The notes: generated by a model from the sequence alone, not told the origin. 64,000 nt of DNA from a virus (IMGVR_UViG_3300007770_000001); one strand, 5' to 3'; numbered from the stretch's first letter, positions 4,223 to 63,394 are shown. Program-made: numbers and translations.

Positions 4223-4250
4223 GTTTCTACTCGACCGGTTCCGACGTAAC
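4223..4250 (+). promoter_or_regulatory. promoter-like motif copy
   Basis: GTTTCT-N14-GACGTAAC followed by AAGGAGG and ATG 4273. Confidence 0.75.
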
Positions 4251-4272
4251 TCTTGTGTAAGGAGGCAGGAAC

Positions 4273-4749
4273 ATGGAAATCTGTGGATACCGGAACCGTC
4301 GTGGAGCTCTCGCGATTCGCGTGGACGATGATGGGCCCCTCGTTCTCGAGAACGGTCGCACCATTCCCGGCGAGCACCCCGCATGGGAATACGACGACGA
4401 TGTCGACATCTCTGAGTGCTCTGGGGACCAGATCGAGTACATCATGGCTCTCTCCCACGAGGAGGAGCGCGCAGAGAGCATCCGCCGCGCGAAGGCCGCG
4501 GAGGCCCGGCGCAACCTGATGACCAGCTACGTCAAGACGGTCGCCACCAGGGGTCTCTCTGTCACGGACAGCGAGTACCCCAAGGGCCGGGAAGTTCTCC
4601 AGGAGCTCGTCTCCGAGAGTGATGCTCGCGGGATCCTCGAGGCAGGCGCGCAGAAGGATCGCGAGATCCAGGCCCACCGGGATCAGGCGTGGGATCGTAT
4701 GCTCTCTGGGATGGAGAACCTGATCACGGTGCTGTCCCAGGCGCGGTAA
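4273..4749 (+). CDS. hypothetical protein
   Basis: 158-aa ORF with strong SD. Confidence 0.75.
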   Translation: MEICGYRNRRGALAIRVDDDGPLVLENGRTIPGEHPAWEYDDDVDISECSGDQIEYIMALSHEEERAESIRRAKAAEARRNLMTSYVKTVATRGLSVTDSEYPKGREVLQELVSESDARGILEAGAQKDREIQAHRDQAWDRMLSGMENLITVLSQAR

Positions 4750-4818
4750 CGGATTCCACTGATGTTGGGTTTTCTGGCTATTCTCAAGACCCCTTTCCGG
4801 GGGGAGCGGTCGGTGTCA

Positions 4819-5562
4819 ATGGAGACCCCTTTTGACCTGATCTCACAACAAGCTGGGGATGACGACGGCCAGCCTCGGACCAACCCTCTCGAGGGAAGCT
4901 GGTTCGACCTCCATGTTCGCAGGAGCTGCGGCCCTCGGTGCACTCCCCGGTGCTACGACCATCGGGGAGTGCTCGCTCAGTTGCCCTCGCAGTATCGGAT
5001 CCCATCGGCTCCGTTCATCCGATGGTGTCTGTCCAAGACACCATCGAGGCATCTGTCCCTTCCCTGGAAGCCTGCCCACAAGTCAGGGATGAAAATCACA
5101 GGAGACAACCCCTACCACACTGACTGGGTGGTAGGGGCGGGCGTTTCCCTTGCGATGGTGTATCGTGACCATGCCTTGAGCAAAGCCGCAGACAGGGTTC
5201 GTCTGGAAGTGCAGCAAGAGATCTGTGGATTCAAGGCAGCGGTCCTATGTGGAAATGCTCGGACCTCCTACCTGGAAGTGGTGCACCCGGAGCCCGATCA
5301 AGAGCTGAGCTCCTCAGTCATCGCTGTCTGTCCCTACGCATCTCCTGAGTACTACATCCCTGCAGTCACAGCTGCGGCAACCATCGTAGAGGTAGGGGGC
5401 CCTCTCTCCCACCTCGCCTGTGTAGGGCGCTCAGAGGGAGTCTCAGTACTCCAGGTTGATGGGGCCCGCGCCTTGTACCCGGAGGGAACTCGGGTACGGG
5501 TAGACGCCCTTCGCGGACTCGTGGAGGTGGATTTCCTCTACGACTTCCGGAGACCTGTTTGA
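4819..5562 (+). CDS. protein with C-terminal PEP-utilising enzyme mobile (phosphohistidine swivel) domain
   Basis: TIVEVGGPLSHLACVGRSEGVSVL...GTRVRVDALRGLV matches the GGxxSHxAxxAR swivel signature; ATG 4819 preferred over 4762 because of the upstream GGAG. Confidence 0.75.
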   Translation: METPFDLISQQAGDDDGQPRTNPLEGSWFDLHVRRSCGPRCTPRCYDHRGVLAQLPSQYRIPSAPFIRWCLSKTPSRHLSLPWKPAHKSGMKITGDNPYHTDWVVGAGVSLAMVYRDHALSKAADRVRLEVQQEICGFKAAVLCGNARTSYLEVVHPEPDQELSSSVIAVCPYASPEYYIPAVTAAATIVEVGGPLSHLACVGRSEGVSVLQVDGARALYPEGTRVRVDALRGLVEVDFLYDFRRPV

Positions 5563-6158
5563 CCACCTACACATATCTCGACACCGAGACCACAGGACTC
5601 GACTTCCTGGTCAGCGAGATCATCGAGATCGCAATCATCCGCGTGGGCCCTCGCGGAGAGGAGTCCCGCTTCGAGACGAAGATCAAACCCAAGAACATCG
5701 AGGCAGCACACCCCCGCGCTCTCGAGGTCAACGGATACACAGAGGAGGCTTGGGCAGACGCCCCCCAACTTGAAGAGGCAGCCGAAGAGATCGCACACCA
5801 CCTCCGGAAGTCTGCTCTGGTGGGACATAACGTCTCCTTCGATGAGGTTCTTCTCAAGGAGAACCTCAAGCGTGTGGGGATGGGTCATCTCAAGATCCCC
5901 TACCACAAGGTGGACACCATCACCTTGGTTCATGAGCACCTGTTTCCCCTCGGACTCCGGAGCGCCAGCTTCGATCGGGTCCGGGAGTTCTTGGGCTGGG
6001 AGGTCCGGAAAGTGCATCGGGCGATGGATGATGCCGAGGACGCCCGGAGACTCCACCTCTTGCTCCAGAGAGCCGGGGTATGGCGGAGATGCACTATTCG
6101 GCTGGGGAGAGTATGGCGTTCACTTCGGGGGCAGATGTCCTCTCCTCGGACCACATAG
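5559..6158 (+). CDS. DEDDh 3'-5' exonuclease (DnaQ-like)
   Basis: YLDTETTGLD, GHNVSFDE, HRAMDDAE. Confidence 0.9.
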   Translation: MTTYTYLDTETTGLDFLVSEIIEIAIIRVGPRGEESRFETKIKPKNIEAAHPRALEVNGYTEEAWADAPQLEEAAEEIAHHLRKSALVGHNVSFDEVLLKENLKRVGMGHLKIPYHKVDTITLVHEHLFPLGLRSASFDRVREFLGWEVRKVHRAMDDAEDARRLHLLLQRAGVWRRCTIRLGRVWRSLRGQMSSPRTT

Positions 6159-6664
6159 AGAAGGCTCTCCTCGACCAGATCAACAAGAAAGTATGGGGTC
6201 CTCTGGGCAACCCTCCTGGTTTCAAAACGAGAGTCCAGAGATTCGACAGCCCGTCTATGATGACACGGGGCTTCTGGATAGAGGTGGAAGTCGAAGGCCG
6301 CGCTCGGGTGGGGACCCGAGTCGAGTTCTCTCATCTTGCGTTGAGCCGGCTAAGCGCCACGGATCTGGGCCAGGCTCTCAAGAACCAGGTCATCGGGGGA
6401 ATGCTAAAGAACTTCCCTCCTCGTCTGTACGAGTATGATCCCCGGAAGGGAACGGCTCGTATCGTCGGGAACATCTGTGATGAGGTGCTGGCCTGTCCAA
6501 TCATAGATCCACCCCCAGGGGTCCGGAACCCGCTCGTTTTCGTGGACACCAAGGACCTCTGGAACCACTGCGCGACCTGTGATGTAGGATTCTCTCACGG
6601 GGAGGTGGTGTATTGGAGGGGTGGGTTTCTGCTCTGGGGATGTGCCCTCTGCACGCACGGTTGA
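6113..6664 (+). CDS. hypothetical protein with C-terminal Cys motifs
   Basis: ORF 6080-6664, GGAGAG before ATG 6113; CATC...CALC. Confidence 0.55.
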   Translation: MAFTSGADVLSSDHIEKALLDQINKKVWGPLGNPPGFKTRVQRFDSPSMMTRGFWIEVEVEGRARVGTRVEFSHLALSRLSATDLGQALKNQVIGGMLKNFPPRLYEYDPRKGTARIVGNICDEVLACPIIDPPPGVRNPLVFVDTKDLWNHCATCDVGFSHGEVVYWRGGFLLWGCALCTHG

Positions 6665-6704
6665 CTCCCTATCGGGGGCTCCTGGGTGTCCAAGGAGCTG
6701 TCAG

Positions 6705-7082
6705 ATGTCCGAAGAGCACCGTTTCAAAGTGTCTGTGGAGCGTGTTGCTCAGATGCACCGTGCTGCCACCGCCCCTCGGGTGGTGGTGATCGACATCTGG
6801 TCCAACCCAGGATACGAGAGGGAATACCAGGGTCCCCCCGGACATCTGGTGAAGCGCCAGATCGACCGGTACAGCATGTTCTCCGGGGGGTCTTGGAAGT
6901 TCTCCAAGACCTTCGATACCAAGAGGGAGGCGGAAGTCGCAGGGGAGAAGCTGAAGCGGGACTTCCAGAACAGGAACTGGCCTGGAGGGATGGCCGACTT
7001 CCCGGTGGTCATCGGATGGGATCACGGCGACGGATTCATCGAGTACCAGGCAGCGGTGAGCACGTATCTCTCTTGGTCGTAG
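6705..7082 (+). CDS. hypothetical protein with N-terminal SVERVA motif
   Basis: AAGGAG SD before ATG 6705. Confidence 0.7.
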   Translation: MSEEHRFKVSVERVAQMHRAATAPRVVVIDIWSNPGYEREYQGPPGHLVKRQIDRYSMFSGGSWKFSKTFDTKREAEVAGEKLKRDFQNRNWPGGMADFPVVIGWDHGDGFIEYQAAVSTYLSWS

Positions 7083-7087
7083 TCGGG

Positions 7088-7139
7088 TAACTACGACCCT
7101 CCAGAACGTAAACCTTCCGGGTAGTTAGGCTCCTGGAGG
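7088..7139 (+). other. candidate H-type pseudoknot / structured intergenic RNA
   Basis: Two interleaved perfect 7-bp helices: 7088-94 with 7121-27 and 7098-104 with 7133-39. Confidence 0.35.
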
Positions 7140-7185: not shown

Positions 7186-7728
7186 GTGACGAGGAAGTTG
7201 AGGCCGGTGGAGATCCCGCTTCCCGAGGACATCCAGGAAGCTGTGTTGGGCCTCCCGGTGAACGGTGATCTGGGAACCACCACCGTGGGCGAACTCCTCA
7301 GGAAGGCCCAGACCTATATGGATCTGGCAGAGGATGCTGTCCAAAAGAACCCTCTCCTTCAGGTAGCGGCAACGCATCTGATGCAGAAGGAGAACCGACG
7401 GGGGACCCCGGAGATACAGATAGGTCTGGGAGGCACTGTCTCCCTGGTCGTCCGGTACAATGGTGTCTCGGAGGAACCCCCGAGAACGCCCCTCCCCTCC
7501 CTCGGGGTTCTCCGGGAGATCGCAGCCAAAAACGGAGTGGACATCTCAGATCTGGGCCGGAAGAAGACGGAGATCCTCGAGCGCCTCCGGAAGTCCGGTA
7601 TCTCCGCTATCTCTTCTCCCACACCGGAGGCTTCTTGGCAGAGTTCGGCTACTGGCAGTTCGGAAAGAGAAACGGACTCAAAGGTGTCGCAGACACTTCC
7701 TACGAGCTCCCCGACGGGAGAATCGTAG
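7186..7728 (+). CDS. hypothetical protein with putative HeH/Rho-N-like helical motif
   Basis: GAGGGGG before GTG; LPSLGVLREIAAKNGVDISDLGRKKTEILERL. Confidence 0.6.
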   Translation: MTRKLRPVEIPLPEDIQEAVLGLPVNGDLGTTTVGELLRKAQTYMDLAEDAVQKNPLLQVAATHLMQKENRRGTPEIQIGLGGTVSLVVRYNGVSEEPPRTPLPSLGVLREIAAKNGVDISDLGRKKTEILERLRKSGISAISSPTPEASWQSSATGSSERETDSKVSQTLPTSSPTGES

Positions 7729-13594: not shown

Positions 13595-14056
13595 CTACCC
13601 GAGCGGGGCGTTGGCCGCCCAGAGCTTCTCGAACTCTTCCTTGAAGGCCCGGACCACATAGCTGATGCGGATGATGACGAAGTTTTCCGCATTCCGCTCG
13701 GTGGCGCTCTTGGTGAAGTTGTAGGAACCTGTGAGTACAGCCTTGGGCGCGTTCCGACCGTCTCCGATCAGGAACTTGTTGTGCATGATCCCCTTCTGGT
13801 GATCCCTTCGCACGTCCACACCAGCTGCCTCGAGCTTCTCGTCGTCCGCGTATTTGTTCCCTGCCTGGGTCTTGTCCATAAGCACGCGGACGACGACTCC
13901 CCGCTGGTGTGCTCGGATGATCGCGTCCGCGATAGGGTCATGGGTCAGCGAGTAGATGGCCACGTCGCAGAAGGTATCACATCCGTCTATGAATCCGACC
14001 ACAACCTCGTCGGCGCCGCGATCTGGGCTGAAGTAAGTGCTGGCGTATCGTCCCAT
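13595..14056 (-). CDS. phospholipase D-family (Nuc-like) nuclease, single HKD
   Basis: YFSP, VAIYSLT, MHNKFLIGD, TGSYNFTKSA, NAEN. Confidence 0.9.
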   Translation of the reverse strand: MGRYASTYFSPDRGADEVVVGFIDGCDTFCDVAIYSLTHDPIADAIIRAHQRGVVVRVLMDKTQAGNKYADDEKLEAAGVDVRRDHQKGIMHNKFLIGDGRNAPKAVLTGSYNFTKSATERNAENFVIIRISYVVRAFKEEFEKLWAANAPLG

Positions 14057-14103
14057 GCGCCCCTCTCTGTATAGCCGAGGTAACTGTGGCATAGGAGAAA
14101 AAC

Positions 14104-14543
14104 ATGAGGATCCTTTTGGTTCGCCACGGTGAGTCCCTGGCCAACGTCGATCGTTCCGTCTACCTATCCACAGCGGACCATGCCGTGCCCCTGTCGGACC
14201 GCAGGTCACGGACGAGCATATCCAGGACCTCACCGACGGGGTCCGGAAGAAGTTCCGGGATCTTCTGTGCGAGAGGGAGCTCACGGAGTGGCTCAAGATC
14301 TACGAGAAAGATCTCACCCCGGATGAGCGTCTGGTGCAAGGGCACCACTACGTCTACGAGGCCCGGCTCGTAGACGACCAGGCTGTCCTTTGGGAGGTTG
14401 GCTTCGGAAGAGGGCATGTCACTCGGAGGGATTTCATTCGAAAATTCGACTTCGATCCTCTCGAAGTCCTCAAGGAGCGACTCCAGGCCAAGACGGACGC
14501 CGCGGATGCTCAAGACCTCTTCAAAGAGGTCGGACACCTCTGA
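14104..14543 (+). pseudogene. chimeric remnant: histidine phosphatase N-terminus joined out of frame to an unrelated 3' coding segment
   Basis: MRILLVRHGESLANVD...DHAVPLSDR (RHG motif) stops resembling the family near 14203; a different frame (about 14202-14543) is protein-like but has no start. Confidence 0.6.
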
Positions 14544-14558
14544 CCATAGGATACCTCC

Positions 14559-14882
14559 ATGGCTGAAAGACTCACCCTCAAGACCTACTACGCCCTCGTC
14601 GACCGACTTGCAATCGAGGCAGAGGCACGGAAGGAGGCATGGCCTCGAGAACGCGGCTACAAGGGTGGCTTGGAGTTCTCCCACGAGGTCGTCCAGGAGG
14701 AGGAGTCTCCCCATACCCAGGACCCCATTCTTGGTCTGGTTCTCCTCTCGTTCGCCTCCCGACCCGGTATTGCTTGGGAGGACTGCCCGATGCACAATCC
14801 GACCCGGGACTTCGCTCGGAACACCAGAATCCTGGCTCGTGAGGCCCTCATCTGGGATGTGTATCAACGCATGACGATTTGA
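14559..14882 (+). CDS. hypothetical protein
   Basis: 107-aa ORF, AGGA upstream. Confidence 0.6.
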   Translation: MAERLTLKTYYALVDRLAIEAEARKEAWPRERGYKGGLEFSHEVVQEEESPHTQDPILGLVLLSFASRPGIAWEDCPMHNPTRDFARNTRILAREALIWDVYQRMTI

Positions 14883-14883
14883 G

Positions 14884-14911
14884 GTTTCCTCACTCCTCCC
14901 AGCGACGTAAC
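14884..14911 (+). promoter_or_regulatory. promoter-like motif copy
   Basis: GTTTCC-N14-GACGTAAC then AAGGAG and ATG 14936. Confidence 0.75.
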
Positions 14912-14935
14912 GGTAGGGAAGGAAGGAGAAACCTC

Positions 14936-15031
14936 ATGGCCCAGATCGCCGACCAGATCGCCACTCGCCTCCTCGCGGCCTCCCGCGCCTACTACGGTGG
15001 CCGCGAGCCCTGTGGGCTTTCAGGATTCTGA
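14936..15031 (+). pseudogene. orphaned 5' fragment of NAD-dependent DNA ligase (31 aa)
   Basis: MAQIADQIATRLLAASRAYYGG parallels [22 protein letters not shown] at 16052; truncated where the endonuclease gene begins. Confidence 0.8.
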
Positions 15032-15964
15032 AGCGTTTTGCGCTTTCCTTCTTGCCCAACGTCTTTTTTGGGATTCGCTCATTTTCCTGCGGGTCTCGGC
15101 GGATGTTACTTTCCCCGTATGGGTTTTCCGGACAGCTTCAGAGACCTTATTCCTGAAGTCTGGATCTTCCCATTGAGATACCATCTTTGCTCTCGCCGCT
15201 TCTCTCCGGGTTCCGTCGTCCTGGGACCACGCTTCCAGAGAGCGTTGTCGAACCCTTTCACGAATCGTATTGCCACCTTTCTCCCACCGTTCCCGTTGGG
15301 CGGTTGACATCTTCTGCCGAGACTCCTCGGAGTGAGTCCGCCCTTCCCAGTATTTGTTGCCTTGGTGTGCCTCGCTGATCTTTCTACGGGTCTCGGCAGA
15401 CACGGTTTTCCCTCGGTGGGCTGCTCCAATCTTCTTTTTGGTTTCCGCTGTGTGCTTTTTACCTGTGGCTGCATCTGTTATCCTTCGGAGGGCGTCTGGG
15501 CTATGCACATGACCCCTCATCCGTTCTCTAATCTGCTCCACATGAGATTCTGACAGCTTCCTGCCCGACATCGCTCTGCTAATCTTGGCTCGGGTCTCCG
15601 GAGTGTGGGGAATCCCTATTCGGATTCGGCCCTTGGGGCATATATTGTATCCGGTGGTATGGGGTCTGAGGCGGTCTAACCATTTCTGTTCCGACTGCTC
15701 TACTCCTTCCGGAGAAACCTTTTCGAGGACACTCACTGAGAATGTCTCCTCCCCGTATTTTTCCCAGGCTCGTTGGAGCTTTTGGGAGTGATGGGACCCT
15801 CTCCTGAGACTCCGGAAATGTCCCATTAGACGAGTCCTGATATTGACAGATCCTCCGACATACACTTTTCCGTTCAGGGTGTTGCTGATCTGGTAGACTC
15901 CCGAGCATTTCCGAGGGTCTCCCCCTACATCCCGTATCGCAGCTTCAATTGTGGGCACGTCCAT
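15020..15964 (-). mobile_element. free-standing GIY-YIG homing endonuclease with NUMOD3 repeats
   Basis: SGVYQISNTLNGKVYVGGS...R...H; repeated HT/S-xET(R/K)xKIS NUMOD3 units; visibly more AT-rich than flanks. Confidence 0.9.
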
Positions 15965-16000
15965 ATGATGCCTCTTGAGATAGGCTGTCTATTATTGTAG

Positions 16001-17149
<1,149 letters not shown>

Positions 17150-17177
17150 GTTTCTACACCCAGGTCCTGGACGTAAC
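17150..17177 (+). promoter_or_regulatory. promoter-like motif copy between the ligase halves
   Basis: GTTTCT-N14-GACGTAAC then AAGGAG and ATG 17202. Confidence 0.75.
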
Positions 17178-17201
17178 AGTCTTGAGGAAGGAGTGACCAA
17201 C

Positions 17202-17996
17202 ATGTTCCAGGTGCCCACCAACTGCCCCTCCTGTGGTTTCGAGCTCGAGATGGACGGAGGATACCTGAAGTGCTGCGGGCCCACGTGCCCGGCGCAGGTA
17301 GTCGGTTCCCTCAACCGGTGGGTGGGGAAGCTCCGCATCCTCAACATCGGGAACGCTCTGATCCAGGCCCTGGTCGATGCCGGGCGTGTGTCGGATATCT
17401 CTGGCCTGTACAGGCTGGAAGAGTCCTGGCTGCGCGAGTTCGAGATCGATGGCCGCAAGGTGGGCGGAAACGCCCGGCGCGTGGTGGCCTCCCTGAACGC
17501 AGCGCGGGATATCCCCGTCGACATGTTCGTGGGGAGCCTCGGGATTCCTCTCTGCGGCCGCAAGATGGTCAGCATCCTGGTCGACGCCGGCTACGACGAC
17601 CTCAGCAAGCTCGCCAAGGTCACGACTGCTCAGATGGAAGCGGTCCCCGGGTTCGGCGCCGAGCGCGCTCGTAGCTTCCGTGCCGGCTTCGATGCATGCC
17701 GCTCTCTGATGCTCCAGATCATGGCCTCCGGAGTCGACGTGATCGCTCCGGTCCGCGCGGTGGCTACCGGAGATGCGATGGCCGGCCAGGCCGTGTGCTT
17801 CACGGGTGTCCGTGACAAGGAGGCTTCCGCGGCCATCGTGGATCAGGGCGGCAAGATCGCCAGCGGCGTGTCCAAGAACACCACCCTGTTGGTCGCGAAG
17901 AACCCCGCCTCCACCAGCGGCAAGGCCAAGAAGGCTCGCGCCCTGGGTATCGAGATCATCAGCCAGGCCGAGATGCGGTCCCGGCTCGGCCTCTGA
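17202..17996 (+). CDS. ligA: NAD-dependent DNA ligase, C-terminal part (Zn finger, HhH, BRCT)
   Basis: PTNCPSC...CCGPTCPAQ, LGIPLCG, VPGFG, VCFTG...GVSKNTTLLV...GKAKKARALGIEII. Confidence 0.9.
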   Translation: MFQVPTNCPSCGFELEMDGGYLKCCGPTCPAQVVGSLNRWVGKLRILNIGNALIQALVDAGRVSDISGLYRLEESWLREFEIDGRKVGGNARRVVASLNAARDIPVDMFVGSLGIPLCGRKMVSILVDAGYDDLSKLAKVTTAQMEAVPGFGAERARSFRAGFDACRSLMLQIMASGVDVIAPVRAVATGDAMAGQAVCFTGVRDKEASAAIVDQGGKIASGVSKNTTLLVAKNPASTSGKAKKARALGIEIISQAEMRSRLGL

Positions 17997-18003
17997 GGAC
18001 GCC

Positions 18004-18156
18004 ATGAACGGTCCTGCTGGATTCTGGATCACCTACGTCATTGCCCCGCTCGTGGGACTCGCAGCCGGCATCCGCAGACACCGGAACCCGCTGAAGGTCC
18101 TCTACGCGGTGGTCGTCATCGGCCTCTGCTACCACACCTATGGCTGTCAGTTCTGA
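18004..18156 (+). CDS. small membrane protein
   Basis: GAGGA SD; two hydrophobic segments. Confidence 0.6.
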   Translation: MNGPAGFWITYVIAPLVGLAAGIRRHRNPLKVLYAVVVIGLCYHTYGCQF

Positions 18157-18663: not shown

Positions 18664-18691
18664 GCTTCTACCAGGCAGGACCTGACGTAAT
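18664..18691 (+). promoter_or_regulatory. promoter-like motif copy
   Basis: GCTTCT-N14-GACGTAAT then AAGGAG and in-frame ATG 18717. Confidence 0.65.
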
Positions 18692-18716
18692 ACTCCTGCA
18701 GAAGGAGTATGCTACG

Positions 18717-50400: not shown

Positions 50401-53400
50401 ATAACAGTCTCCACCGTCGGGAAGGCAACCCTGGTAGCAACGCCGCTGCTTCTCTCTGAGTTCCCTGTAGATCCAGACACGGGATGGCCTGACGCAACCC
50501 AGCTCATGTTCAACCCGCTCCCGGCAGGGGCTTCCCTGTTCTCCCTGTTCACAGGGGATATCGATCTCTCCACCCCGGGATTCGAGACCGGCCAACGGCT
50601 ACGATTCGGGAAGCCCGACGGGTCGGTGTTTGAGCTCAGCGATCCAAACGGCAACGGGATCTTCGTCGGGGAAGTCCAGGTAGGCTGTATCCTGACCCTC
50701 GTTGGTGTGGACGGCTCCGACCTCTCCGGATCGGAAGTCCTGGTGGACGGCACAGACCCTCTCGAGGATGTGGTCTCCGAGAACACCGGGCGCGGGGATA
50801 CTATCTTCGGCGGGGAGGACCTCCTGGATATCGAGGATATCCCAGAGGACGAAGACGAGATCACGCCAAAGCAGATGCGGGAGCTCTCCCGCATGATTCC
50901 GGACTACCGAGTCCAGTTCGATCTCAAGGTGGCTCGGGGCTCAGGGGAGTTCATCGACGCTTCCCTCCCGGGTCGGGAGGACATCTTCCCACTCCCGCTC
51001 CAGGACATGCTTGGGCAGAAGCCCCCTCAGCCCCTCAGCTGCATCGAAGGTTTGGTAGAGTTCAACAACACTGATCGAAGGCCCGTCAAGCTCCCCTGCC
51101 TCAAGGGGGAGTCCGCTGACGACTCAGGGGATATCCAGATCCCCTACCTCCAGGGAACCGAGACAGAGCTCGCTATCCTCGGGGACGTAGCGGCCAAGTT
51201 CCGAATCCTCCTCGGTGCGGACACGTCCGTGGCAATGCCCTATGGAGACCAGACTTGGAAGGCTGTATATCCGGATGAGATCGTAGCTGTCGATGGCGTT
51301 CTGGTAGAGACCTACACACTGGGTCCCGACCGAGATCCCGCAACTCTCTATACAGGTCAGGACCTGACCCCTGTCGCCACAGCAGGCTCCTACACAGACG
51401 GAACGGCAATCGGTGACGGCCGAGCCTACGACCTCATCCTGGTGGAGGCGGATCAGCCCCAGGAAGCTGCCGGAGAGCTCCTGACGGGAATGACAGGGAT
51501 CCTCTCCGTTGGCGCCGTATCCTCCGGGAAGGTGGAGACCCCACGGTTCGTGACCCCGACTACCAAGACGGACACCCACAAGTACACAGTGGAGAATGCG
51601 TTTGGATACCTGGGGGGCGCGTTCCCTGCGACCTCTGGCCTCACCCCCTCCGAGACGAACCCTGGGAACTGGATCACCCTCCTCGACTGCTCATCGGTGG
51701 GTGGGCTGGTGTTCGACTCCAATGGAGGAGGTCTCGCAGGAGGGTTGCTTGCCCTGGTCGCAGGCGGAAACGCCATTGTCATCCGCCTCTACAACCCAGA
51801 CCCTGCGACTGCCTCCGGACAGTCCCTCATAGGTGAGGTTGTCATCCCGACCCTGGCAGCTGCAGGCTCCATCTACGTGAACGACCCCTTCGCGACCGTG
51901 ACTACTCTCACGTTGGCAGGGACAGGGGTCTCGTTGACAGCTGCGGGGATCATCTCGGTAGAGACCTCTGCCTCATTGCTCTCTGCGCTCTCGGGAGTCA
52001 CCGGTGGCAACTATCATGACTTCACCGTCACGATCGACACCTACATCACCAACACAACCCGTGTCTCTTCCGGGAACAACATCCCGGTGGGTTCGGCAGG
52101 GGGGTCAACCACCTGCGAGATCAAGGCGAATCGCCTCACGTTCGGTGAGCAGGTCTCCTTCGCGACAACCCTCCCTCGGAACTCCAATCCTGCCAACGGA
52201 GACGCTACGGAACTTGGAGTTTCTCTGGAGGCACATGAGTCTCCGATCGGTGCAGGGACAGCTACTGCGGTCAACGCCTCCGCAGAGGTGAACGGAGGGT
52301 CCGCTCTCACGTTCCTGGAGCGGGTTGGGCCCGACGAGGACAGCACTGTTCTCTCAGGGGTTCCCTACGTGGGAACCTTTATCCCAGGAGCAGCGGGATC
52401 CGAGGAAGGGAAGCTCCGAGCCATGGCCTGGGAGGGCCATGGGAACACGACCTCTCCGTTCACCACCGGAAGCGTGGAGGGGGTGATATTCTCGGTGATC
52501 CCCTCTTCAGACCTGGATGAGGACTCCGTGATCCTGGAAGGGGATGGAACCCTCTGGGATGCCGCCGACGGAGCTCTGACAGTGGATGGACTTCGTCATT
52601 GGATCAGCGCTGTCTCGGCGACCTCTGGGGGTCTCTCCGAGGTGGTTCCAGGAGATATCCTCCTGATCGATCAGACTACAGGGGGCGGCGGGGCGGTCGC
52701 GACAGGAACATACCTGGTCCGGCACGCCGTGGACACCAACACAGGAAATCTCTGGGAGCAGGAGATCTATTCGGACGCGGGACAAAAGAACGGATTGGAC
52801 CTCCGCTTCCCTTCGGTGAAGTCAGCCATCAGCTTGACTCTCGTGGCTGAGGAGGTCCCCGAAGTTCCACATTCCCCCGAGGATTGCGGATTCCCAACCG
52901 GCGACGGCGCCACGACGTTCGTGTACCTGATCAGGAACTCCCGATACGCCATCTACGATGCGGGATCCTACACCCTTCAGTCCGATTCCGTGTACCGGAT
53001 GGCCTACTCCGCTGTCTCCTACGACAGCGCCACGGGGGAGGCCACATTCACTCTGTCTACGGGAACAGCGACCGACGCCAACGGGGGGGCTCTCACCGAC
53101 GCAGAGTTCCGGGACGCGGCGAACGAGTCTGGAGTCCAGGTGTCCGGGATGATCTACTTCCCATTCACCCCGCGAGCCTCGCATGGACTTCCCTCGAACA
53201 ACGTGGTGGGGAGCTCCGAAGATGGCTCCGGGAACGATGCTACAGCGGGGTTCACCTTGGCTGTGATGGGAAACCGAAACCCCAGCGTCCACGGAACAAC
53301 AACCGTCACCACCATGGCTTGGGACAAGACGAGCACTGCTTCCGATATCCAGTACCTGTTGGGAGACACGAGCACTCCTTCCTCCAGCTCCTTGGGTGTC

Positions 53401-55341
53401 AGAGTCCCGACTCCTGTCAGCGAGGCGGTCTTCTTCGAGGACCGCGCCTCAGTGAGATATGCGCGGAGCTACGCAGGAGTCTCGATTGCTGAGAAGATCG
53501 AAGGCGTCCCAACCCACGTCTCCCTGGAGGGGATGCAGGCAGCTGACTGGACAGCCGTACATTTTGACACTGGGGCGGGGCTCCCCGGTCAAGTCCTCGA
53601 GTGCCTCCTTCCTCGGGACCGGTTCATTCTCGGCAGCACTCTCGAGGAAGGAGGCACTCCTGGATTCACTGCTCTTGGGGGCGTGTTCCTTGAGCCGACT
53701 TTCGCCCGGCCCTCCACTGATTTGAATCTCGCTCGGCCCCATGTAGTATCTGACTCCCATAGCTTGGCGGGGTTCCCTGCTCAAGTTGGACATCGCAACT
53801 ACTCAGACTTCGTCCCAGGGACCTATTCGGAGGCCGTTCACTTCAAGGTCCGGAGAATCCGCCGCTTCCATGAGATTCAGACGGAGATCTCTGATGCGCT
53901 GAGTCTCCTCAAGTATCTGTACGAGATCAGGCGGGGGACCTTCGGCTCCTACGTGGCTGCGACCCGAACCTTCTCCGCGGGAACGAGTCCTGCAACCACG
54001 ATTGGGGACTTCAACGAGGGACGCGTCAACATCAACGCGGGAGACGTCCTCCGTATCCTGGATGTGAACGGAGCCTTGATAGACTCTGCCGAGATCCAAG
54101 GAGTGTCGGGGGCTGGGGACCTCATCCTCCGGCGGCCTGGTCTAACCGCCAGTCTGGTGTCGGCGGCCACTTTCGAGATCTACCTGGAACAGCCGATCGT
54201 TCCCCAGGAGCAGTCCAACGCCCAGCTCCTGGATTGCGTCACGGACTCTGAAGTACTTCGACGTGTGGTCGACTATCCGGGAGGAGATACCGACGGAGGA
54301 TCCGCATCTACGTGGAACACGATGCAGGACAACCTGGTATCCTCCTGGACCTCTGAAGGGGTGGTAGAGGGCGACTACGTGCTTGTACAGCCGGCTGGGG
54401 AGCTCTACGACCCGTCCGAGAAGGGTGTCCGCCCCGTAGGGGATACCGGAACTGTGGGGCGCTCAGCCTACGTCTCCGGAGCCGCAGCAGCCCTTGATGA
54501 TAACCGAGGAGCCTACAAGATCACCGGAATCAGTGGCGGCGACCTCGAGGTTGATGGAACCTCCCGGTTTGGAGGAAGCGATGAGGGCGGGGGGGATGAC
54601 GTCATCCTTGGAGGCACGGGTGCTGAATACGTGGCTCTGCCCACCATCCACGTCAGCACCCTGGGATCCGGGAGGGAGGGGCAGAACACTCTCCGCCCGA
54701 CAGCGCCTGCCGTGGGGGGTCTCTTCGGGAACCGAACCGGGAACGACGCGGTCTCCAGCATCCAGCCGTTCCCGTACCGAATCATCCGACCCAACTCCAT
54801 CTTCTCCCAGGATGCGTTGGACCTGGTGTTCTTCCTGTGGGAGAGGACCCTATCCTGGTTGGATGAAATCAAGGGGATCTACGAGGAAGGGCGTGGGGGG
54901 GACTACCATGTCTTCCAGGCGGAGGACCACATCAACAACATCGGGTCACCAACTGACCCCACAGACGGAGCCGGGGTGGTGTCGAATCTGGTGGTGGAAT
55001 CCCTGGAAGGTCTGGTAGACGAGACACCCTACACCAATACGTCCGACTGCCTCTCTATCCTGGGCCGGCGCTTCTGGCTCTTGGACGGCCGCTTGGATGA
55101 GGGGGGTTGGACAGACTTCGCGGATGATGGATTCGGACAGCGGCCTGTGATCCCTGACCTCATCGAAGACGTCCTCAACCTCGATGACCGGTTCCGGGAC
55201 CTCCGCTACGCATGGATCCGTTTCCGGGCCGATCGAGTAGACGGATCAATCATGGAAGCGCGACGTGCCGAGGACGAACTTCCGGACAAGCTCCAACGCC
55301 AGAGAGAGCTCGTAGCCCTCAAGAAGGGTCTGGACTCGTAG
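44446..55341 (+). CDS. giant virion structural protein (3631 aa), putative baseplate wedge/fibre
   Basis: Uninterrupted 10.9-kb ORF, acidic and Gly/Thr/Ser-rich, in the baseplate cluster. Confidence 0.85.
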   Translation: MGFNLSGYVLRPARVATGNASSTGEATSGVSRDHLSPAEMLAAGYEIPAPRDVEPYADMYRAAVLLRGGGTDEYLVWAATSGSLSTVDSDAFRISGDPTYVQPAEGSLTVGTYTDGTATFYVRDENGRDLSSVTGMTLLRGDTLGQVVAAFDPGQDPLIGKVVIDAATLSSMGGGFSVGRGDQILLVSYRLSGPTFWWSRNDSQATRFGWDGSKGRWVPFQGTTPQDLGEVGSKDSYELSPPPSRFSVGDTLPGASGSPDSFSLVRGGLFPDSTAIPLDILVVADPDTEGDYPAVGSGYDAVVGVTNGVLLLNTTYTTANVGLTLWYNPESFRPGDDGDLGELAGLPTDSTLGYPVLSPVPGPTERPFIRLGSRRYLAPVAYDTDADLPGDPSSVPEGEVWWSRATGKVVFSETDIKKTQPGETEYDIAYLGAHAFYDGVSLSTQPVPLQSPVPLVDENGNELVGEDTGGSGVPGSGDLFIQRSASMPPPGASGVLYVPDRTGESPDSSTAANARPNGSGLVRQLEGVGDTFIFAGSRALETLEVVEYEEDIPTLKIRVKKTEAVTSLEPAPSQPPGFAATSRVQMKRRGIKGEGLYFAQAQVTPATYSDEARLYSRNSEPYTLVGTEELRFAVDGTPYTWTASGSGEFTAAQIATELNTVITGTGQAGVIRGRVFIEAGTPSSGRVEIGWNTDADDLSGHTVLGFLPGWRVDASGDTFRWQPDNGSSLGLYRSPENLSRENLTADIRATGSYTGKVFTDNVQASPFVHVNNPPLVDIPGFDEDVHFQMSLGLNLVRLSNYGLRQRVGLKYDLENNRVIWAEFGETPATTVLSPTDTLQLDHTGVIEETVDSEAMDPTRAGFGLYLKRPGLISYSELGQGSEFLLPGEGAPGQAVLISPEGGSVYSGGGGTFSSGVFSNPVLSPESTQNAILQGNLLSAVSVGDRLHVINGSGAGLYTVTGANLVGGIAEFTVSPTPADETGLSWRILEGQTTDTFDPTILADAQRVPFNHFLNEPFRIRLLSPTGTVGGSLSAVVSDALGSNRPVALRFGLASSSPSATVSFLETGSDLGTLAETGLSVPDVTDPHFLNSTAPATAYFRIRVGSQEFTAGTNMTLVSSFSTTIATGEIEVGEPGGGVAGEIRFASDVLTNFAGETVYYDQLFLDGSLLASGFCEIDPTDGSIRLSDADTTAHTGETAYFLEELITERGLDVVMSPLSGDIYITKPLRDGQIVEAAYYQADTDGDPLTGTLITEFLPLIVQLEEATRVDDFTYTFNPTGRTVSEEIEAAIWVGVELQNFAGLVQVTVSGSTLTFAEAVDPSETVKITYGVLEAFGGEQAYQVSTPPVYRKPFFLEEGQDTATVGGNRTPDVQVGALMVLDQTLFYVKSVSYDAGEDETTFTVWPPPSTEVGSRAPARDSEFSFSSQRIAITVDPSDPVAGGGQEGFLPVVSGVPLVEADRGQLQVVFLGDLTQYARVGHLLEIAGYPYLVAGSALSDDGRFTRVDLSNPIATGHTSTDTIRLSVRPVFGPLPRTFPGISGFVDTEEFSLFLVGRTEAGVELPGKELTEGVHYEADPSSGAVEFVLPTQGALQPGESLVATYTAVSEVGPLVDEAAILAPAFKAQYLFITTPSLQNRILGATLTAQYTFSNPDSFFYEVLPMEDFLGEVSGKALGAVASDSGGPTDAFAGLPDNSEQGLLGLRGDVRDKKDLDRAARAFIELYNGVVLAFEQVLESFDGRVIGDRDGKFRFFIGHDKRYAGPGYEDEISGDLTVRLIWREVLDEWSGGVGFYEEVDPVYDPTTATEKDPVGRPGETDGDTPDPETLASFTVRQRGRVKNDMDDRLLIGMGRPRGLALIFPGLNVPGLFRDMWEPHVYSRLFPERARHFSRLLPGIDAVPSASGFTDPGYYTSGRKVETPGPEPGETTKSVVRTRGTAIGNISNEALGNITGIIEVLATDRHPRARIWRFFPEGDAEMDSALTSATGITVSTVGKATLVATPLLLSEFPVDPDTGWPDATQLMFNPLPAGASLFSLFTGDIDLSTPGFETGQRLRFGKPDGSVFELSDPNGNGIFVGEVQVGCILTLVGVDGSDLSGSEVLVDGTDPLEDVVSENTGRGDTIFGGEDLLDIEDIPEDEDEITPKQMRELSRMIPDYRVQFDLKVARGSGEFIDASLPGREDIFPLPLQDMLGQKPPQPLSCIEGLVEFNNTDRRPVKLPCLKGESADDSGDIQIPYLQGTETELAILGDVAAKFRILLGADTSVAMPYGDQTWKAVYPDEIVAVDGVLVETYTLGPDRDPATLYTGQDLTPVATAGSYTDGTAIGDGRAYDLILVEADQPQEAAGELLTGMTGILSVGAVSSGKVETPRFVTPTTKTDTHKYTVENAFGYLGGAFPATSGLTPSETNPGNWITLLDCSSVGGLVFDSNGGGLAGGLLALVAGGNAIVIRLYNPDPATASGQSLIGEVVIPTLAAAGSIYVNDPFATVTTLTLAGTGVSLTAAGIISVETSASLLSALSGVTGGNYHDFTVTIDTYITNTTRVSSGNNIPVGSAGGSTTCEIKANRLTFGEQVSFATTLPRNSNPANGDATELGVSLEAHESPIGAGTATAVNASAEVNGGSALTFLERVGPDEDSTVLSGVPYVGTFIPGAAGSEEGKLRAMAWEGHGNTTSPFTTGSVEGVIFSVIPSSDLDEDSVILEGDGTLWDAADGALTVDGLRHWISAVSATSGGLSEVVPGDILLIDQTTGGGGAVATGTYLVRHAVDTNTGNLWEQEIYSDAGQKNGLDLRFPSVKSAISLTLVAEEVPEVPHSPEDCGFPTGDGATTFVYLIRNSRYAIYDAGSYTLQSDSVYRMAYSAVSYDSATGEATFTLSTGTATDANGGALTDAEFRDAANESGVQVSGMIYFPFTPRASHGLPSNNVVGSSEDGSGNDATAGFTLAVMGNRNPSVHGTTTVTTMAWDKTSTASDIQYLLGDTSTPSSSSLGVRVPTPVSEAVFFEDRASVRYARSYAGVSIAEKIEGVPTHVSLEGMQAADWTAVHFDTGAGLPGQVLECLLPRDRFILGSTLEEGGTPGFTALGGVFLEPTFARPSTDLNLARPHVVSDSHSLAGFPAQVGHRNYSDFVPGTYSEAVHFKVRRIRRFHEIQTEISDALSLLKYLYEIRRGTFGSYVAATRTFSAGTSPATTIGDFNEGRVNINAGDVLRILDVNGALIDSAEIQGVSGAGDLILRRPGLTASLVSAATFEIYLEQPIVPQEQSNAQLLDCVTDSEVLRRVVDYPGGDTDGGSASTWNTMQDNLVSSWTSEGVVEGDYVLVQPAGELYDPSEKGVRPVGDTGTVGRSAYVSGAAAALDDNRGAYKITGISGGDLEVDGTSRFGGSDEGGGDDVILGGTGAEYVALPTIHVSTLGSGREGQNTLRPTAPAVGGLFGNRTGNDAVSSIQPFPYRIIRPNSIFSQDALDLVFFLWERTLSWLDEIKGIYEEGRGGDYHVFQAEDHINNIGSPTDPTDGAGVVSNLVVESLEGLVDETPYTNTSDCLSILGRRFWLLDGRLDEGGWTDFADDGFGQRPVIPDLIEDVLNLDDRFRDLRYAWIRFRADRVDGSIMEARRAEDELPDKLQRQRELVALKKGLDS

Positions 55342-55726
55342 AGACGGGGAACCCGACGGGCTCTCCGGTCTCCAGATCTACGAAAGGAGAGGCCAGGATC
55401 TTCTCCTCGTTCTCGATATAGTTGAAGGTGATCTCACCTCCAGGGTTGATCTGAACGAGAGCCACCAGACACCCCCCTTCTACCTTGCAGGTGGGGTTCA
55501 CAGAGTGATTCGTGTATCTCCCAAACTCGTCATCTATGTGGACATCCGGAGCAGTGCGAATGGACTCTCTGGTAGGATGGAGGTACACATCCCCATCCAG
55601 GAGGCGAACCACCTCCCCGGGAGAGAAGGACACCTTGGCAACCAGGCATAGGTGTCCCCGACGGGACACGACTCTGAAGAGACTGTTCTCGGGCAGCACG
55701 TTCCCTCCGGGTGTTCGGGAGTACAC
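55319..55726 (-). CDS. SET-domain protein (putative lysine methyltransferase)
   Basis: GRYTNHSVNPT, ALVQINPGGEITFNY; probable start GTG 55699 with GGAGG upstream. Confidence 0.8.
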   Translation of the reverse strand: MYSRTPGGNVLPENSLFRVVSRRGHLCLVAKVSFSPGEVVRLLDGDVYLHPTRESIRTAPDVHIDDEFGRYTNHSVNPTCKVEGGCLVALVQINPGGEITFNYIENEEKILASPFVDLETGEPVGFPVSTSPDPS

Positions 55727-55759
55727 TGACTATATCCCCAACACCCTACGGGAGAACAC

Positions 55760-61648: not shown

Positions 61649-62656
61649 GTGATGACCCAACCAACCATCCTCAGCCTCCTCGGAGCCGTCAACGAGAAGT
61701 TGGCCGCGACTCCAGAGGGGCGAGACATCTTCGATCGCCTGAAGAGGGGTGAGATCGACATGGAGAATGCAGCCGTTGCTCTTCATGACATCGCCGCCCG
61801 GTCGGGATTGATTCCAGACCTGACCTCCCTCTCCAAGAGGTTCTCCGAGATCTCCCCCGGAATGCTCAAGGGAGGCCGCCCCGTAGCGGTCAAGCTCACG
61901 GGATTGCCTCAGCTCAATCCTCTGGTGGAGGCCGCCATCATGGAGCGGGCCTCCCTGGACGGAGATGTTCCCGAGATGAGAACAGGGCAACTCCCTCCGG
62001 AAGGACGTCCCGCCGTCCCGGTGATCGCCGATGTAATGGAGCCTGCAACCCTGGGCTCCATGCTCGAGACCGCCTCGGAGCATATCTCTCGGAAGCTGGT
62101 AGCGGCTCGGGCGGGGCACACGGAGACCTGTGGCCGGCTCATTGAGCTTGCTCGGGAGACCGCAGCGCGCAATGGAGTGGATCAGGTCACGGCCATGATG
62201 ATCGCCTCCCAGAACTTCCCTCCAGTCCCTACTGGAGTTCCGGGCTACGAGGCGGGGCAGGCCCCCACAGCACTCAGGATAGCGGAGCCCAATCCACTGG
62301 CGATCGCGGCTCTCCCAGAGACCCAGAAGCGCGCCCTGTCCTTCAAGGTCCTGTCAACGACCCAGGGACGCAAGTCTGCCGCTTTCTGCATCGAACAGGA
62401 CCTCACCCGCCGATCAGGAGTCCCAGAGGGGAAGCCTTCCGAGATCAGCCCTGCCGTCATCTGGCAGGCCGAAGCCCACGGAGCGGAGGACCTCGGAGAC
62501 TCAAACAGCATGGCCCAGGCCGCCGCTGCTTTCCTGAGGCTCCTCCGTCAGGCCTCCCGGGAAGATCCCTCGACTGTCTTCTCCGTGAGCCCTTGGGCTG
62601 ACATCCCCTCGCGAAAGTTCGGGTGGGTGATGGAATACGGACCCCCAGCCAAGTAG
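61649..62656 (+). CDS. hypothetical protein
   Basis: 335-aa ORF. Confidence 0.7.
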   Translation: MMTQPTILSLLGAVNEKLAATPEGRDIFDRLKRGEIDMENAAVALHDIAARSGLIPDLTSLSKRFSEISPGMLKGGRPVAVKLTGLPQLNPLVEAAIMERASLDGDVPEMRTGQLPPEGRPAVPVIADVMEPATLGSMLETASEHISRKLVAARAGHTETCGRLIELARETAARNGVDQVTAMMIASQNFPPVPTGVPGYEAGQAPTALRIAEPNPLAIAALPETQKRALSFKVLSTTQGRKSAAFCIEQDLTRRSGVPEGKPSEISPAVIWQAEAHGAEDLGDSNSMAQAAAAFLRLLRQASREDPSTVFSVSPWADIPSRKFGWVMEYGPPAK

Positions 62657-62665
62657 GGAGACACC

Positions 62666-62968
62666 ATGGACACGTTCGCATCCAACCTGGTCGGGTTCCT
62701 CCGCCGCTGGGATACCGACAGCCTGGTTGTGGTGGTTCACCCTGGAAGGGATGTCACCCGTGCCCACGCGCTCATCTCCTCGGAGTTCCCAGAGTCCGTG
62801 TTCACCACCAACTTCTGGGCAGCCGGGGACCGGGAGATACGAGTCCGGTCCACAAAGGAGTCTCCGGGGGACCTCTCAGGATACACCCTGTTCCTGTGCA
62901 ACGGGGGCCAGTCCTTCCCCTCCGAGGCCCAGAGGTGTCTTCAGGAGTGGGAGACACGTGCCCTCTGA
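62666..62968 (+). CDS. hypothetical protein
   Basis: GGGAG SD. Confidence 0.6.
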   Translation: MDTFASNLVGFLRRWDTDSLVVVVHPGRDVTRAHALISSEFPESVFTTNFWAAGDREIRVRSTKESPGDLSGYTLFLCNGGQSFPSEAQRCLQEWETRAL

Positions 62969-63365
62969 TCTCCTTACTGTCCAGATCCGTGGGGGAGAGC
63001 CATTCGAGATCTCCCTGGAAGGGAATCCTCTCTTCACGCACAACGGGGCGACCACAGTCCAACCGTTGATGATCACCCCCGAAGAGGAAGAGGCCCTGAG
63101 AGGCTTAGCTCTCAGGGCAGGATCTCAGATAGAGTTTTTCCGGCCGGGGAAGCCAAGCGAGGAGCAGGAGAGGATTCGCTCCCTTCTGATGGGAGAGGCC
63201 GGCGCCGCTCGTGTATGGCCCTGTGTCCAGTGCCCAACCTGTCCGTGGGCCAACCCCTTCCACGAGTACCCTTGCGGACTGGACACCATGGAGGCCGCAA
63301 CCATACAGGGACTCATGGGAGATCCCCTGTACGAGAAGGCAATCGAGGAGTGTCCGGTAGCATAG
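62958..63365 (+). CDS. hypothetical protein with C-terminal CxxCxxC
   Basis: GGGAG before GTG 62958. Confidence 0.6.
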   Translation: MPSDLLTVQIRGGEPFEISLEGNPLFTHNGATTVQPLMITPEEEEALRGLALRAGSQIEFFRPGKPSEEQERIRSLLMGEAGAARVWPCVQCPTCPWANPFHEYPCGLDTMEAATIQGLMGDPLYEKAIEECPVA

Positions 63366-63366
63366 A

Positions 63367-63394
63367 GTTTCTTGGGCTATCCCTGTGGGGTAAT
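63367..63394 (+). promoter_or_regulatory. variant promoter-like motif copy
   Basis: GTTTCT-N14-GGGGTAAT upstream of ATG 63417. Confidence 0.5.

Follow-up and report, generated by a model that had tools for sequence, protein, structure and literature searches.

A recurrent bipartite motif upstream of non-structural genes in a marine jumbo phage as a probable promoter class read by a phage-encoded ECF-like sigma factor

A two-part DNA motif recurs in front of non-structural genes of an uncultured marine jumbo phage (IMGVR_UViG_3300007770_000001), which raises the question of whether it marks a class of promoters and which sigma factor would read it. A first-pass annotation of 64,000 nt of this genome (the window) had listed eight main copies, at positions 4223, 14884, 16006, 17150, 18664, 19272, 26803 (with a 13-nt spacer) and 27510, and all eight were present as described. 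Together the eight sites in the window followed (A/G)(G/A)nTTCY-N14(13)-GACGTAAY, and two further sites were present in 19.5 kb of flanking phage sequence, at approximately −9626 and 71303 in window numbering. The site scan thus covered 83.5 kb (window plus flanks) of a genome of 285–339 kb. We refer to these sites as class 1 and write their short consensus as GGnTTCY-N14-GACGTAAY, where GGnTTCY, also written (A/G)GnTTCY, would be the −35 box and GACGTAAY, with the core CGTA, the −10 box.

The strict pattern matched 5 times against 0.00 expected from 100 shuffles. GACGTAA occurred nine times in the window, exclusively on the + strand, against 2.1 expected; eight of these were motif sites and the ninth, at 47689, lay within a 3631-aa ORF and had no −35 box. 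When a position weight matrix (PWM) was trained on nine sites and the tenth was scored, the sites reached 17.8–27.5 bits over the 83.5 kb, against at most 13.8 bits for the best non-site position on either strand. All 10 sites were on the + strand and co-oriented with their genes, each followed after 18–28 nt by a start codon and most by a Shine–Dalgarno (SD) sequence, which bears out the annotated proximity to starts. ACGTAA and CGTAAC were the top words 5′ of SD–start pairs in an unbiased word count; an order-2 background and words upstream of SD–start pairs were effective here, and maximal-order Markov word statistics were insensitive. TTC and CGTA were separated by 17 nt in nine of the 10 sites and by 16 nt in the remaining one. 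No class-1 site lay in the virion (structural) block at 30.6–63 kb, and the genes behind the motif here include the NAD-dependent DNA ligase, as expected from the claim that it precedes non-structural genes.

The motif had no internal base-pairing, and its spacers and flanks were unconserved around a fixed gap. Because the spacers differ between copies, the copies are not recent duplicates. Assemblies of the phage from other samples were 99.8–100% identical, so that population variants gave no selection signal at the boxes. Four metatranscriptome runs from the same studies had no match over positions 14000–30000, a result with no bearing on expression. The strict orientation, the fixed distance to SD and start and the unconserved spacers agree with the promoter class proposed in the annotation.

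The first site (4223–4250, GTTTCT-N14-GACGTAAC, 25.5 bits) lay 22 nt 5′ of the ATG at 4273 of a 158-aa ORF with the SD sequence GGAGG. The site at 14884–14911 (GTTTCC-N14-GACGTAAC, 24.5 bits) was 24 nt 5′ of the ATG at 14936, which opens a 31-codon stub copying the ligase N-terminus; it is probably the original ligase promoter, left stranded by an endonuclease cassette. The adenylation and OB half of the NAD-dependent DNA ligase now starts at ATG 16052, 18 nt downstream of the site at 16006–16033 (GTTTCT-N14-GACGTAAT, 24.4 bits), and the HhH and BRCT half starts at ATG 17202, 24 nt downstream of the site at 17150–17177 (GTTTCT-N14-GACGTAAC, 23.1 bits), which occupies the 52-nt gap separating the two ligase genes. 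This start, which the annotation had corrected by means of the motif, was the same in an independent gene call. A similar correction to ATG 18717 (188 aa), 25 nt downstream of the site at 18664–18691 (GCTTCT-N14-GACGTAAT, 21.2 bits), was upheld as well: the site sits within an in-frame upstream extension (18456–18716) with no homologue and low GC3 (0.62 upstream versus 0.80 downstream), and the homologue in a relative aligns from residue 86 onward.

The site at 19272–19299 (ACTTCC-N14-GACGTAAC, 18.9 bits), 28 nt 5′ of ATG 19328, overlaps the stop codon of the 18717 gene with its −35 box and stands at the head of a run comprising 19328–19594, 19621–20268 and then a sigma factor gene. The site with the 13-nt spacer (26803–26829, GCTTCT-N13-GACGTAAC, 23.4 bits) was 21 nt 5′ of ATG 26851, in a divergent gap adjoining the minus-strand gene at 25817–26800. 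The last site in the window (27510–27537, GTTTCC-N14-GACGTAAC, 24.5 bits) was 20 nt 5′ of ATG 27558 (509 aa), and the gene at 27072–27536 ends with the TAA of its −10 box as stop codon; with an SD present and this 20-nt distance, 27558 fits better as a start than 27546. Two variants that the annotation had added, both on the + strand, did not hold up as motif copies. The one at 7064–7091 scored −2.6 bits, and the one at 63367–63394 scored 11.8 bits, within the background range; the spacer of the latter contains GGCTATCCCT, a copy of the class-2 motif GT-N7-CTATC that lies 40 nt 5′ of ATG 63417.

As the reader of the motif, the annotation had proposed either a phage sigma factor encoded at 20344 or a host extracytoplasmic function (ECF) sigma factor. 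A sigma gene was present, but TTG 20362 is more likely to be its start than 20344. By its profile matches and predicted structure, the 310-aa product (20362–21294, + strand) is a divergent two-domain (sigma2 and sigma4) ECF-like sigma factor with an extra N-terminal domain: a conserved domain at residues ∼1–90 is followed by a disordered linker, sigma2 (∼130–205) and sigma4 (∼232–309), and sigma1.1 and sigma3 are absent, as in ECF (group 4) factors. Its scores were below the curated family thresholds, at 39.4 bits for TIGR02937 (cut-off 42.9; E = 4.6e-10, with positions 16–160 of 165 aligned to residues 140–301) and 18.3 bits for Pfam Sigma70_r2 (cut-off 24), and phrog_1740 matched with E = 1.6e-9. 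In the AF2 model (pLDDT 87.6), two helical domains follow the linker, and the top Foldseek matches were sigma factors without exception, mostly of the ECF type, including Mycobacterium tuberculosis sigH and sigL, Escherichia coli sigmaE and AlgU (probability 0.9–0.99, E from 2e-3 to 4e-2). A PDB sequence search gave no match at E ≤ 1, and tblastn gave none among ∼50,700 phage records. A search of viral contigs with the single protein returned nothing, and an alignment-based search recovered the wider family, which comprises at least 514 clusters (at 50% identity), mostly from huge-phage contigs of up to 618 kb. The protein was the sole member of this family within the 83.5 kb of the 285–339 kb genome.

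Seven phages with this sigma family, including the present one, had GTA-anchored sites in which GnTT stood ∼23 nt 5′ of (C)GTA. Their GC contents were 45–62% and their spacing was the same, with lineage-specific flanks; as the seven phages are mutually related, their common features are not independent. The GnTT..(C)GTA set comprised 10 sites in this phage, 14 in G001 and 34 in G004 (2.8 expected). The corresponding forms were GGGGGGTTCAAC..TCCGTATAG in G002 (21 sites), CGTTAAAAC..TTCCGTAAGTA in G003 (16 sites), GGnCTTAT..GAGTAGTCTA in G010 (69 versus 11.8 expected) and GGnT(C/T)G..TCCGTATA in G006, the phage with 45% GC, where CCGTATA occurred 58 times and TCCGTATA 40 times (4.2 expected). 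The nearest relative, G001, whose sigma factor is 43% identical, had GGnTTCC-N-GACGTAA, and its 13 copies of GACGTAA on the gene strand and 2 on the other compared with 0 and 1 in the control.

In three phages (this phage, G001 and G010), the ligase was preceded by the lineage's own version of the motif, and G010 has a split ligase as here, with a putative promoter for each half. The motifs before these orthologous genes differed in step with the lineage, and in a three-way alignment of the ligase upstream regions (the stub, the current gene and G001), conservation was confined to the two boxes (−35 and −10), the SD and the start codon ATG, with different spacers. Other non-structural genes behind the motif in relatives encode PARP-like proteins, ADP-ribosylglycohydrolase, NAPRTase, MoxR/VWA proteins and phosphoesterase. 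Two loci with 38–41% identical sigma factors (6.7 and 14 kb) contained no class-1 sites but are too short for this to carry weight. G002 and G003 had similar sigma4 recognition helices and visibly different −35 flanks, so that the covariation between sigma4 and the −35 box is not clean.

None of six genomes had a class-1 motif directly upstream of the sigma gene, the nearest being 597 nt to 69 kb away. Several relatives had a TAnnnT-type −10 sequence upstream of the gene, and its candidate own promoter is TAGTAT, 18 nt before the start, in this phage and GGTAT(T/A)GT in relatives. Since no class-1 box lies directly 5′ of the gene, the sigma factor is probably made first from another promoter. 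It might alternatively be a late product that is delivered alongside the DNA, given that the gene lacks the motif throughout and adjoins virion-type genes in this phage.

Several features recall bacterial ECF promoters, of which the Bacillus subtilis sigmaW promoter TGAAAC-N16-CGTA is an example: a two-domain sigma factor, a bipartite promoter, a 16–17 nt spacer and a −10 box with a CGT(A) core. ECF −35 boxes have a conserved AAC core (GGAAC or TGAAAC), whereas the −35 box here is GGnTTC without AAC; G002 and G003 have AAC 3′ of GTT. ECF sigma factors also drive their own genes through a promoter of the type they recognize, as a rule together with a co-transcribed anti-sigma factor, and the present protein differs both in the lack of a class-1 site directly 5′ of its gene across the six genomes and in its scores under the family cut-offs. 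Sigma70 promoters have a −35 box of TTGACA and a −10 box of TAnnnT with invariant A-11 and T-7. Taken as such a hexamer, the −10 box of class 1 would read TAAYnn, in which a final T is not conserved, next to a −35 box of GGnTTC, and a sigma70 consensus scan of 12–31 kb found 2 sites against 3.0 expected. T4 middle promoters combine a MotA box with a sigma70 −10 box and involve AsiA; they resemble class 1 in having a phage-specific upstream box and a −10 box before middle (replication and repair) genes, but the −10 box here is not of the sigma70 type and the spacing is that of −35 and −10 boxes, not of a −30 MotA box.

We consider it probable, on comparative sequence grounds, that the motif is an early/middle promoter class read by the host core RNA polymerase together with the phage's own sigma factor. 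The 17 nt from TTC to CGTA correspond to ECF-type promoter geometry, and the two-domain factor encoded at 20362–21294 would direct the host core enzyme to class-1 sites, with transcription starting a few nt past GACGTAAY and 5′ leaders of ∼10–20 nt holding the SD. The sigma factor would be made first from a different promoter and would then switch on the regulon, so that control would take the form of a cascade and not of ECF-style autoregulation. The phage factor is the most likely reader because all examined relatives with this factor have related versions of the motif, and the comparative data thus favour this branch of the annotation's two proposals.

The other branch, in which the sites are real promoters read by an alternative (ECF-type) sigma factor of the host that the phage exploits for early expression, seems to us distinctly unlikely. 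In its favour, both the CGTA −10 box and the 17-nt spacing resemble those of ECF promoters, and since the phage sigma gene lacks the motif, the phage factor could act as the initial reader only if it had been supplied or produced beforehand; however, GnTT...(C)GTA recurs in seven phages that differ in GC content and probably in host, their known common feature is the phage sigma family, and the flanks follow the phage lineage even before the same orthologous gene. Moreover, 10 sites in 83.5 kb make this a main non-structural promoter class of this stretch, for which dependence on a stress-gated host factor would be risky. Reading through a different phage factor, either another sigma-like protein encoded beyond the window or a GGnTTC-binding activator with a remodelled host sigma factor in the manner of T4 MotA/AsiA, is also unlikely, if less so. 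It draws on the further sigma-like ORFs of the complete relatives, which include tandem sigma4-only proteins and one weak sigma2–4 match, but sigma4-only proteins are unable to read a −10 box, and the 20362 family was confirmed as sigma2 plus sigma4 proteins in all seven genomes. A remodelled sigma70 does not fit because the −10 box breaks the TAnnnT rule, with C, G or T at the sixth position after TA without preference.

Least of all do we expect the motif to be something other than a promoter, such as an operator or repressor site, a 5′ leader element acting at the RNA level or a relic of a mobile repeat, which we regard as very improbable. The copy at 16006 is part of the endonuclease cassette, which means that mobile DNA does carry some copies along. 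Nevertheless, a pair of short boxes at a fixed separation, co-orientation and a constant SD distance form a promoter footprint, and an origin from mobile repeats leaves the family-wide conservation of spacing unexplained.

Reading by the phage sigma factor would have precedents in known phage sigma-dependent promoter classes. As with phiEco32 gp36 and SPO1 gp28/gp34, an encoded sigma factor is found with a conserved motif before one functional class of genes. phiEco32 gp36 is a distant phage sigma factor with sigma2-like and sigma4-like domains that binds the host core RNA polymerase and serves middle and late promoters with the consensus AATGTA near −11.5 and −35 contacts; the early genes, including the class to which its sigma gene belongs, depend on host sigma70 (PMC12276001). 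Both phages encode a two-domain sigma factor and have a phage-specific motif, the binding of the factor being a prediction here. The present protein differs in having no detectable sequence relation to gp36 (tblastn, ∼50,700 phage records) and an extra N-terminal domain of ∼90 aa with a linker; both boxes (GGnTTCY and GACGTAAY) are strongly conserved here, and the regulon is non-structural, with another motif at structural genes.

Group 2 (T4-like) jumbo phages have no RNA polymerase of their own and encode sigma factors that recruit the host polymerase, described as minimal single-HTH and RpoD-like versions with no promoter code (Iyer et al. 2021, PMC7824862). This phage has rIIB and baseplate-J genes. 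PF00562 (RpoB-type) had no match in five relatives, including two with complete genomes, although phiKZ-type polymerases are very divergent; the lack of a detected RpoB-type gene in the two complete relatives would be in line with the published picture. The difference lies in an ECF-like sigma factor with an N-terminal domain and a likely promoter consensus from seven genomes. The 3631-aa ORF was considered as an N4-type virion RNA polymerase and dropped as unsupported, having no Pfam or PHROG match, and megablast with this gene found no match among GenBank phages.

A wider reading is possible but doubtful at present, namely that a huge-phage clade runs its entire non-structural programme through a private ECF-like sigma factor with the code GnTT-∼18 nt-(C)GTA, the flanks co-diverging with the factor, and with the factor perhaps even a late product that accompanies the DNA on delivery. 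If true, nature would have supplied a set of sigma/promoter pairs that are orthogonal to one another, and, with delivery, class-1 sites would be true early promoters independent of host sigma70. Should the pairing of sigma factor and promoter hold, the seven lineage versions would be candidate orthogonal expression switches and would extend the published ECF classification, which did not capture phage ECF factors (PMC7826278). The consensus, the candidate sigma factor and the regulon, with DNA ligase among its members and NAD/ADP-ribose enzymes as well in relatives, offer a testable transcription map for uncultured huge marine phages with no cultured relative. For annotation, the motif supported the starts at 18717, 17202 and 27558, exposed a shadow ORF and marked the orphaned ligase stub.

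We found five matches to the strict pattern GTTTCY-N13-15-GACGTAAY in the window, all on the + strand, and none in 100 dinucleotide-preserving shuffles. The word GACGTAA alone occurred nine times, on the + strand only, against 2.1 expected, and eight of these copies were the main sites of the first-pass annotation, all of which were thereby recovered. GTTTCY was replaced by GCTTCT or ACTTCC at three of the eight sites and the spacer was N13 at one, while the ninth copy, at 47689 within a 3631-aa ORF, had no upstream box. When the window was lengthened to 83.5 kb with adjoining sequence from a second assembly of this phage (L087 on the upstream side and L004 on the downstream side), two sites were added, near -9626 and 71303 on the window's numbering. 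When each of the ten sites was scored with a matrix derived from the remaining nine, scores ranged from 17.8 to 27.5 bits; good sites elsewhere or antisense, which had been named as evidence against the motif, were not seen, the highest non-site position on either strand of the 83.5 kb scoring at most 13.8 bits with these leave-one-out matrices. When all 6-mers within 60 nt ahead of SD-start pairs were counted blind to the motif, ACGTAA and CGTAAC ranked highest.

The end of GACGTAAY lay 18–28 nt before the start codon, and at the last site this spacing was obtained with 27558 as the start, the codon used in the public gene call and preceded by an SD, and not with 27546. The TAA within the -10 box of this site (GACGTAA, 27530–27536) also terminates the gene before it (27072–27536), and at 19272 and 14884 the preceding stop codon overlaps or directly adjoins the -35 box. 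Two public gene calls were also affected. A 275-aa call includes 87 in-frame codons (18456–18716) 5′ of ATG 18717 that have no homologue in the nearest relative, G001, and a GC3 of 0.62 versus 0.80 for the rest of the gene; this stretch is probably non-coding and holds the 18664 promoter, in agreement with the start correction to 18717 proposed earlier. The site at about -9626 lies upstream of a 209-aa + strand ORF (L087:133–762) with a coding signature (GC by codon position 0.62/0.45/0.72), an SD and the promoter motif, and the public minus-strand call overlapping it (L087:55–708) looks like a shadow ORF.

Two variants proposed in the first-pass annotation were lost on scoring: that at 7064 scored -2.6, and that at 63367 scored 11.8, which is background level, and belongs with a second motif, GT-N7-CTAT(C/A), often GGCTATCYCY, located 28–41 nt before gene starts. 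This motif was found at 6660–6673, 7598–7611, 21291–21307, 32848–32864, 55721–55734 and 63375–63384, ahead of genes starting at 6705, 7635, 21341, 32891, 55760 and 63417, respectively, several of which are of structural type. Its exact 10-mer occurred three times, always in intergenic positions, and a looser pattern 11 times against 5.2 expected; it probably represents a late promoter class.

The window comes from an uncultured, T4-like marine jumbo phage: rIIB and baseplate-J genes were found in the flanks, and the candidate sigma protein described below and a protein from the window end occurred in marine or seawater metagenomes, where their contigs measured 68, 285 and 339 kb. Nearly all genes are on the + strand. 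Between 30.6 and 63 kb lies a block made up of very large ORFs, none with a Pfam or PHROG match, and sites of the GACGTAAY class are absent from it. The 3631-aa ORF at 44446–55341 had no match whatever in either database, and likewise the adjoining ORFs of 1012, 1289, 803 and 840 aa.

G001, an IMG/VR contig whose sigma protein is 43% identical, carries GGnTTCC-N-GACGTAA ahead of SD-start pairs, and GACGTAA was present 13 times on the gene strand and twice on the opposite one (0 and 1 in the reversed control). In five further phages with the same sigma family, over-represented words were sought without presupposing the motif, and each genome yielded one dominant bipartite element: GGGGGTTCC-N-CCGTA in G004 (34 versus 2.8 expected), GGGGGGTTCAACTC..ATCTCCGTATAGG in G002 (21 copies), CGTTAAAAC..CTGCTTCCGTAAGTA in G003 (16 copies), GGnCTTAT..GAGTAGTCTAGGTG in the complete 436-kb genome G010 (69 versus 11.8 expected) and GGnT(C/T)G..TCCGTATA in G006, which has 45% GC (CCGTATA 58 times; TCCGTATA 40 versus 4.2 expected). 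Upstream of the GTA-anchored sites, GnTT occupied identical columns in all seven genomes, which are from related phages and are not independent samples; core and spacing were constant and the flanks lineage-specific. The downstream genes in relatives were non-structural, encoding ligase, PARP-like transferase, ADP-ribosylglycohydrolase, NAPRTase, MoxR/VWA proteins and phosphoesterase. By these sequence comparisons, the motif is real and conserved and very probably a promoter class. Other strongly over-represented words were CTGAATCA and CTGAAGCA in G004 (L114–L122; 48 and 66 copies versus 5 and 11 expected) and CTAGTTCG in G006 (L145–L159; 103 copies versus 5.7 expected).

The ligase gene is preceded by the lineage-specific version of the motif in this phage, G001 and G010. 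Here two separate genes encode the NAD-dependent DNA ligase, one for the adenylation and OB half (16052–17149) and one for the HhH and BRCT half (17202–17996), and the 52-nt gap between them has a stop, a promoter motif and an SD. The distant relative G010 has the same two halves, each with its own promoter, and the gene is fused in G001, G002 and G003. A predicted homing-endonuclease cassette occupies the 5′ end of the gene (14936–16052): a 31-codon stub copying the ligase N-terminus (14936–15031), with its own site, is followed by a minus-strand GIY-YIG/NUMOD3 endonuclease gene (15020–15964) and then by the present start at 16052, which also has a site and a replacement N-terminus spelled differently from the stub. 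When the regions upstream of the stub, the present ligase and the G001 ligase were aligned, only the -35 box, -10 box, SD and ATG were conserved, and the spacers differed throughout. The stranded stub promoter now points antisense into the endonuclease gene and is predicted to fire.

The sole member of the sigma family in the searched 83.5 kb, a minor part of this phage's genome, is the ORF at 20362–21294 (+), which has a TTG start and the SD AAGGGGG. It covered nearly the whole TIGR02937 (sigma70-ECF) profile with an E-value of 4.6e-10 and 39.4 bits, slightly below the 42.9-bit cut-off, and matched PHROG 1740 ‘RNA polymerase sigma factor’ (E 1.6e-9). In its AlphaFold model (32 homologues; mean pLDDT 87.6), a disordered linker connects a small N-terminal domain to two helical domains, and the top Foldseek matches in the PDB were exclusively sigma factors, mainly ECF. 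The family comprised at least 514 representative clusters at E ≤ 1e-3 and was found on 58 IMG/VR contigs, many of 180–618 kb, with no relatives among about 50 700 GenBank phage records; a limited literature search found no paper describing the family or its promoter. The conserved N-terminal domain of about 90 residues (within residues 1–125; 20362–20730) was confidently modelled with three strands plus helices and the motif HLTFxRYFRxGRY, and leads into an acidic, proline-rich linker that is disordered.

Since the -10 box breaks the sigma70 rule TAnnnT and sigma70-like sites were not enriched in the region scanned, an alternative sigma is needed. The first-pass annotation had left the choice between a phage sigma and a host ECF sigma. 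A host sigma is disfavoured, as the hosts of all these phages would need to have retained it and it would also have to drift in step with the phage, while the phage sigma family is common to seven phages of differing GC. Furthermore, no RpoB-type gene was found in two complete relatives, in line with the literature, where jumbo phages of the T4-like group are described as lacking a polymerase and relying on their own sigma factors (PMC7824862). Taken together, these points favour the phage branch of the earlier proposal on comparative grounds, and the most likely reader of the promoters is the ECF-like sigma that the phage itself encodes. One caveat is that another phage sigma-like protein might read them, as relatives do encode other sigma-like ORFs, but these are mainly tandem sigma4-only proteins, for which reading the -10 box is impossible. 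Assignment to the ECF-like sigma carries a further caveat in that the sigma4 helices of G002 and G003 are alike and their -35 flanks unlike.

Among studied systems, phiEco32 gp36 comes nearest in function; it is a distant phage sigma of two domains that reads AATGTA-type middle/late promoters with the host core polymerase (PMC12276001). The sites share the geometry of bacterial ECF promoters but lack AAC in the -35 box, and, unlike in bacterial ECF systems, no autoregulation was seen and the protein scores below the family thresholds; the ECF classification itself states that phage ECFs are not captured (PMC7826278). Phage-sigma promoter classes as such are already known, and what is added here is a family-wide promoter code.

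The promoter motif was never found directly upstream of the sigma gene in the genomes compared, and several relatives have GGTAT(T/A)GT there, a TAnnnT-type -10 box. GGnCTTC-N9-(C/T)GGTAT(T/A)GT is shared by the regions upstream of the sigma genes of four relatives (L010, L012, L013 and L015), and in the window (20269–20361) TAGTAT precedes the TTG start by 18 nt. All are possible host-sigma70 promoters of the sigma gene. A TAnnnT-type box without the phage motif suggests that host sigma70 would express the sigma gene early, followed by a switch to the phage sigma. A scan found no terminator between the 19272 site and the sigma gene, and read-through from that site into the gene could provide positive feedback.
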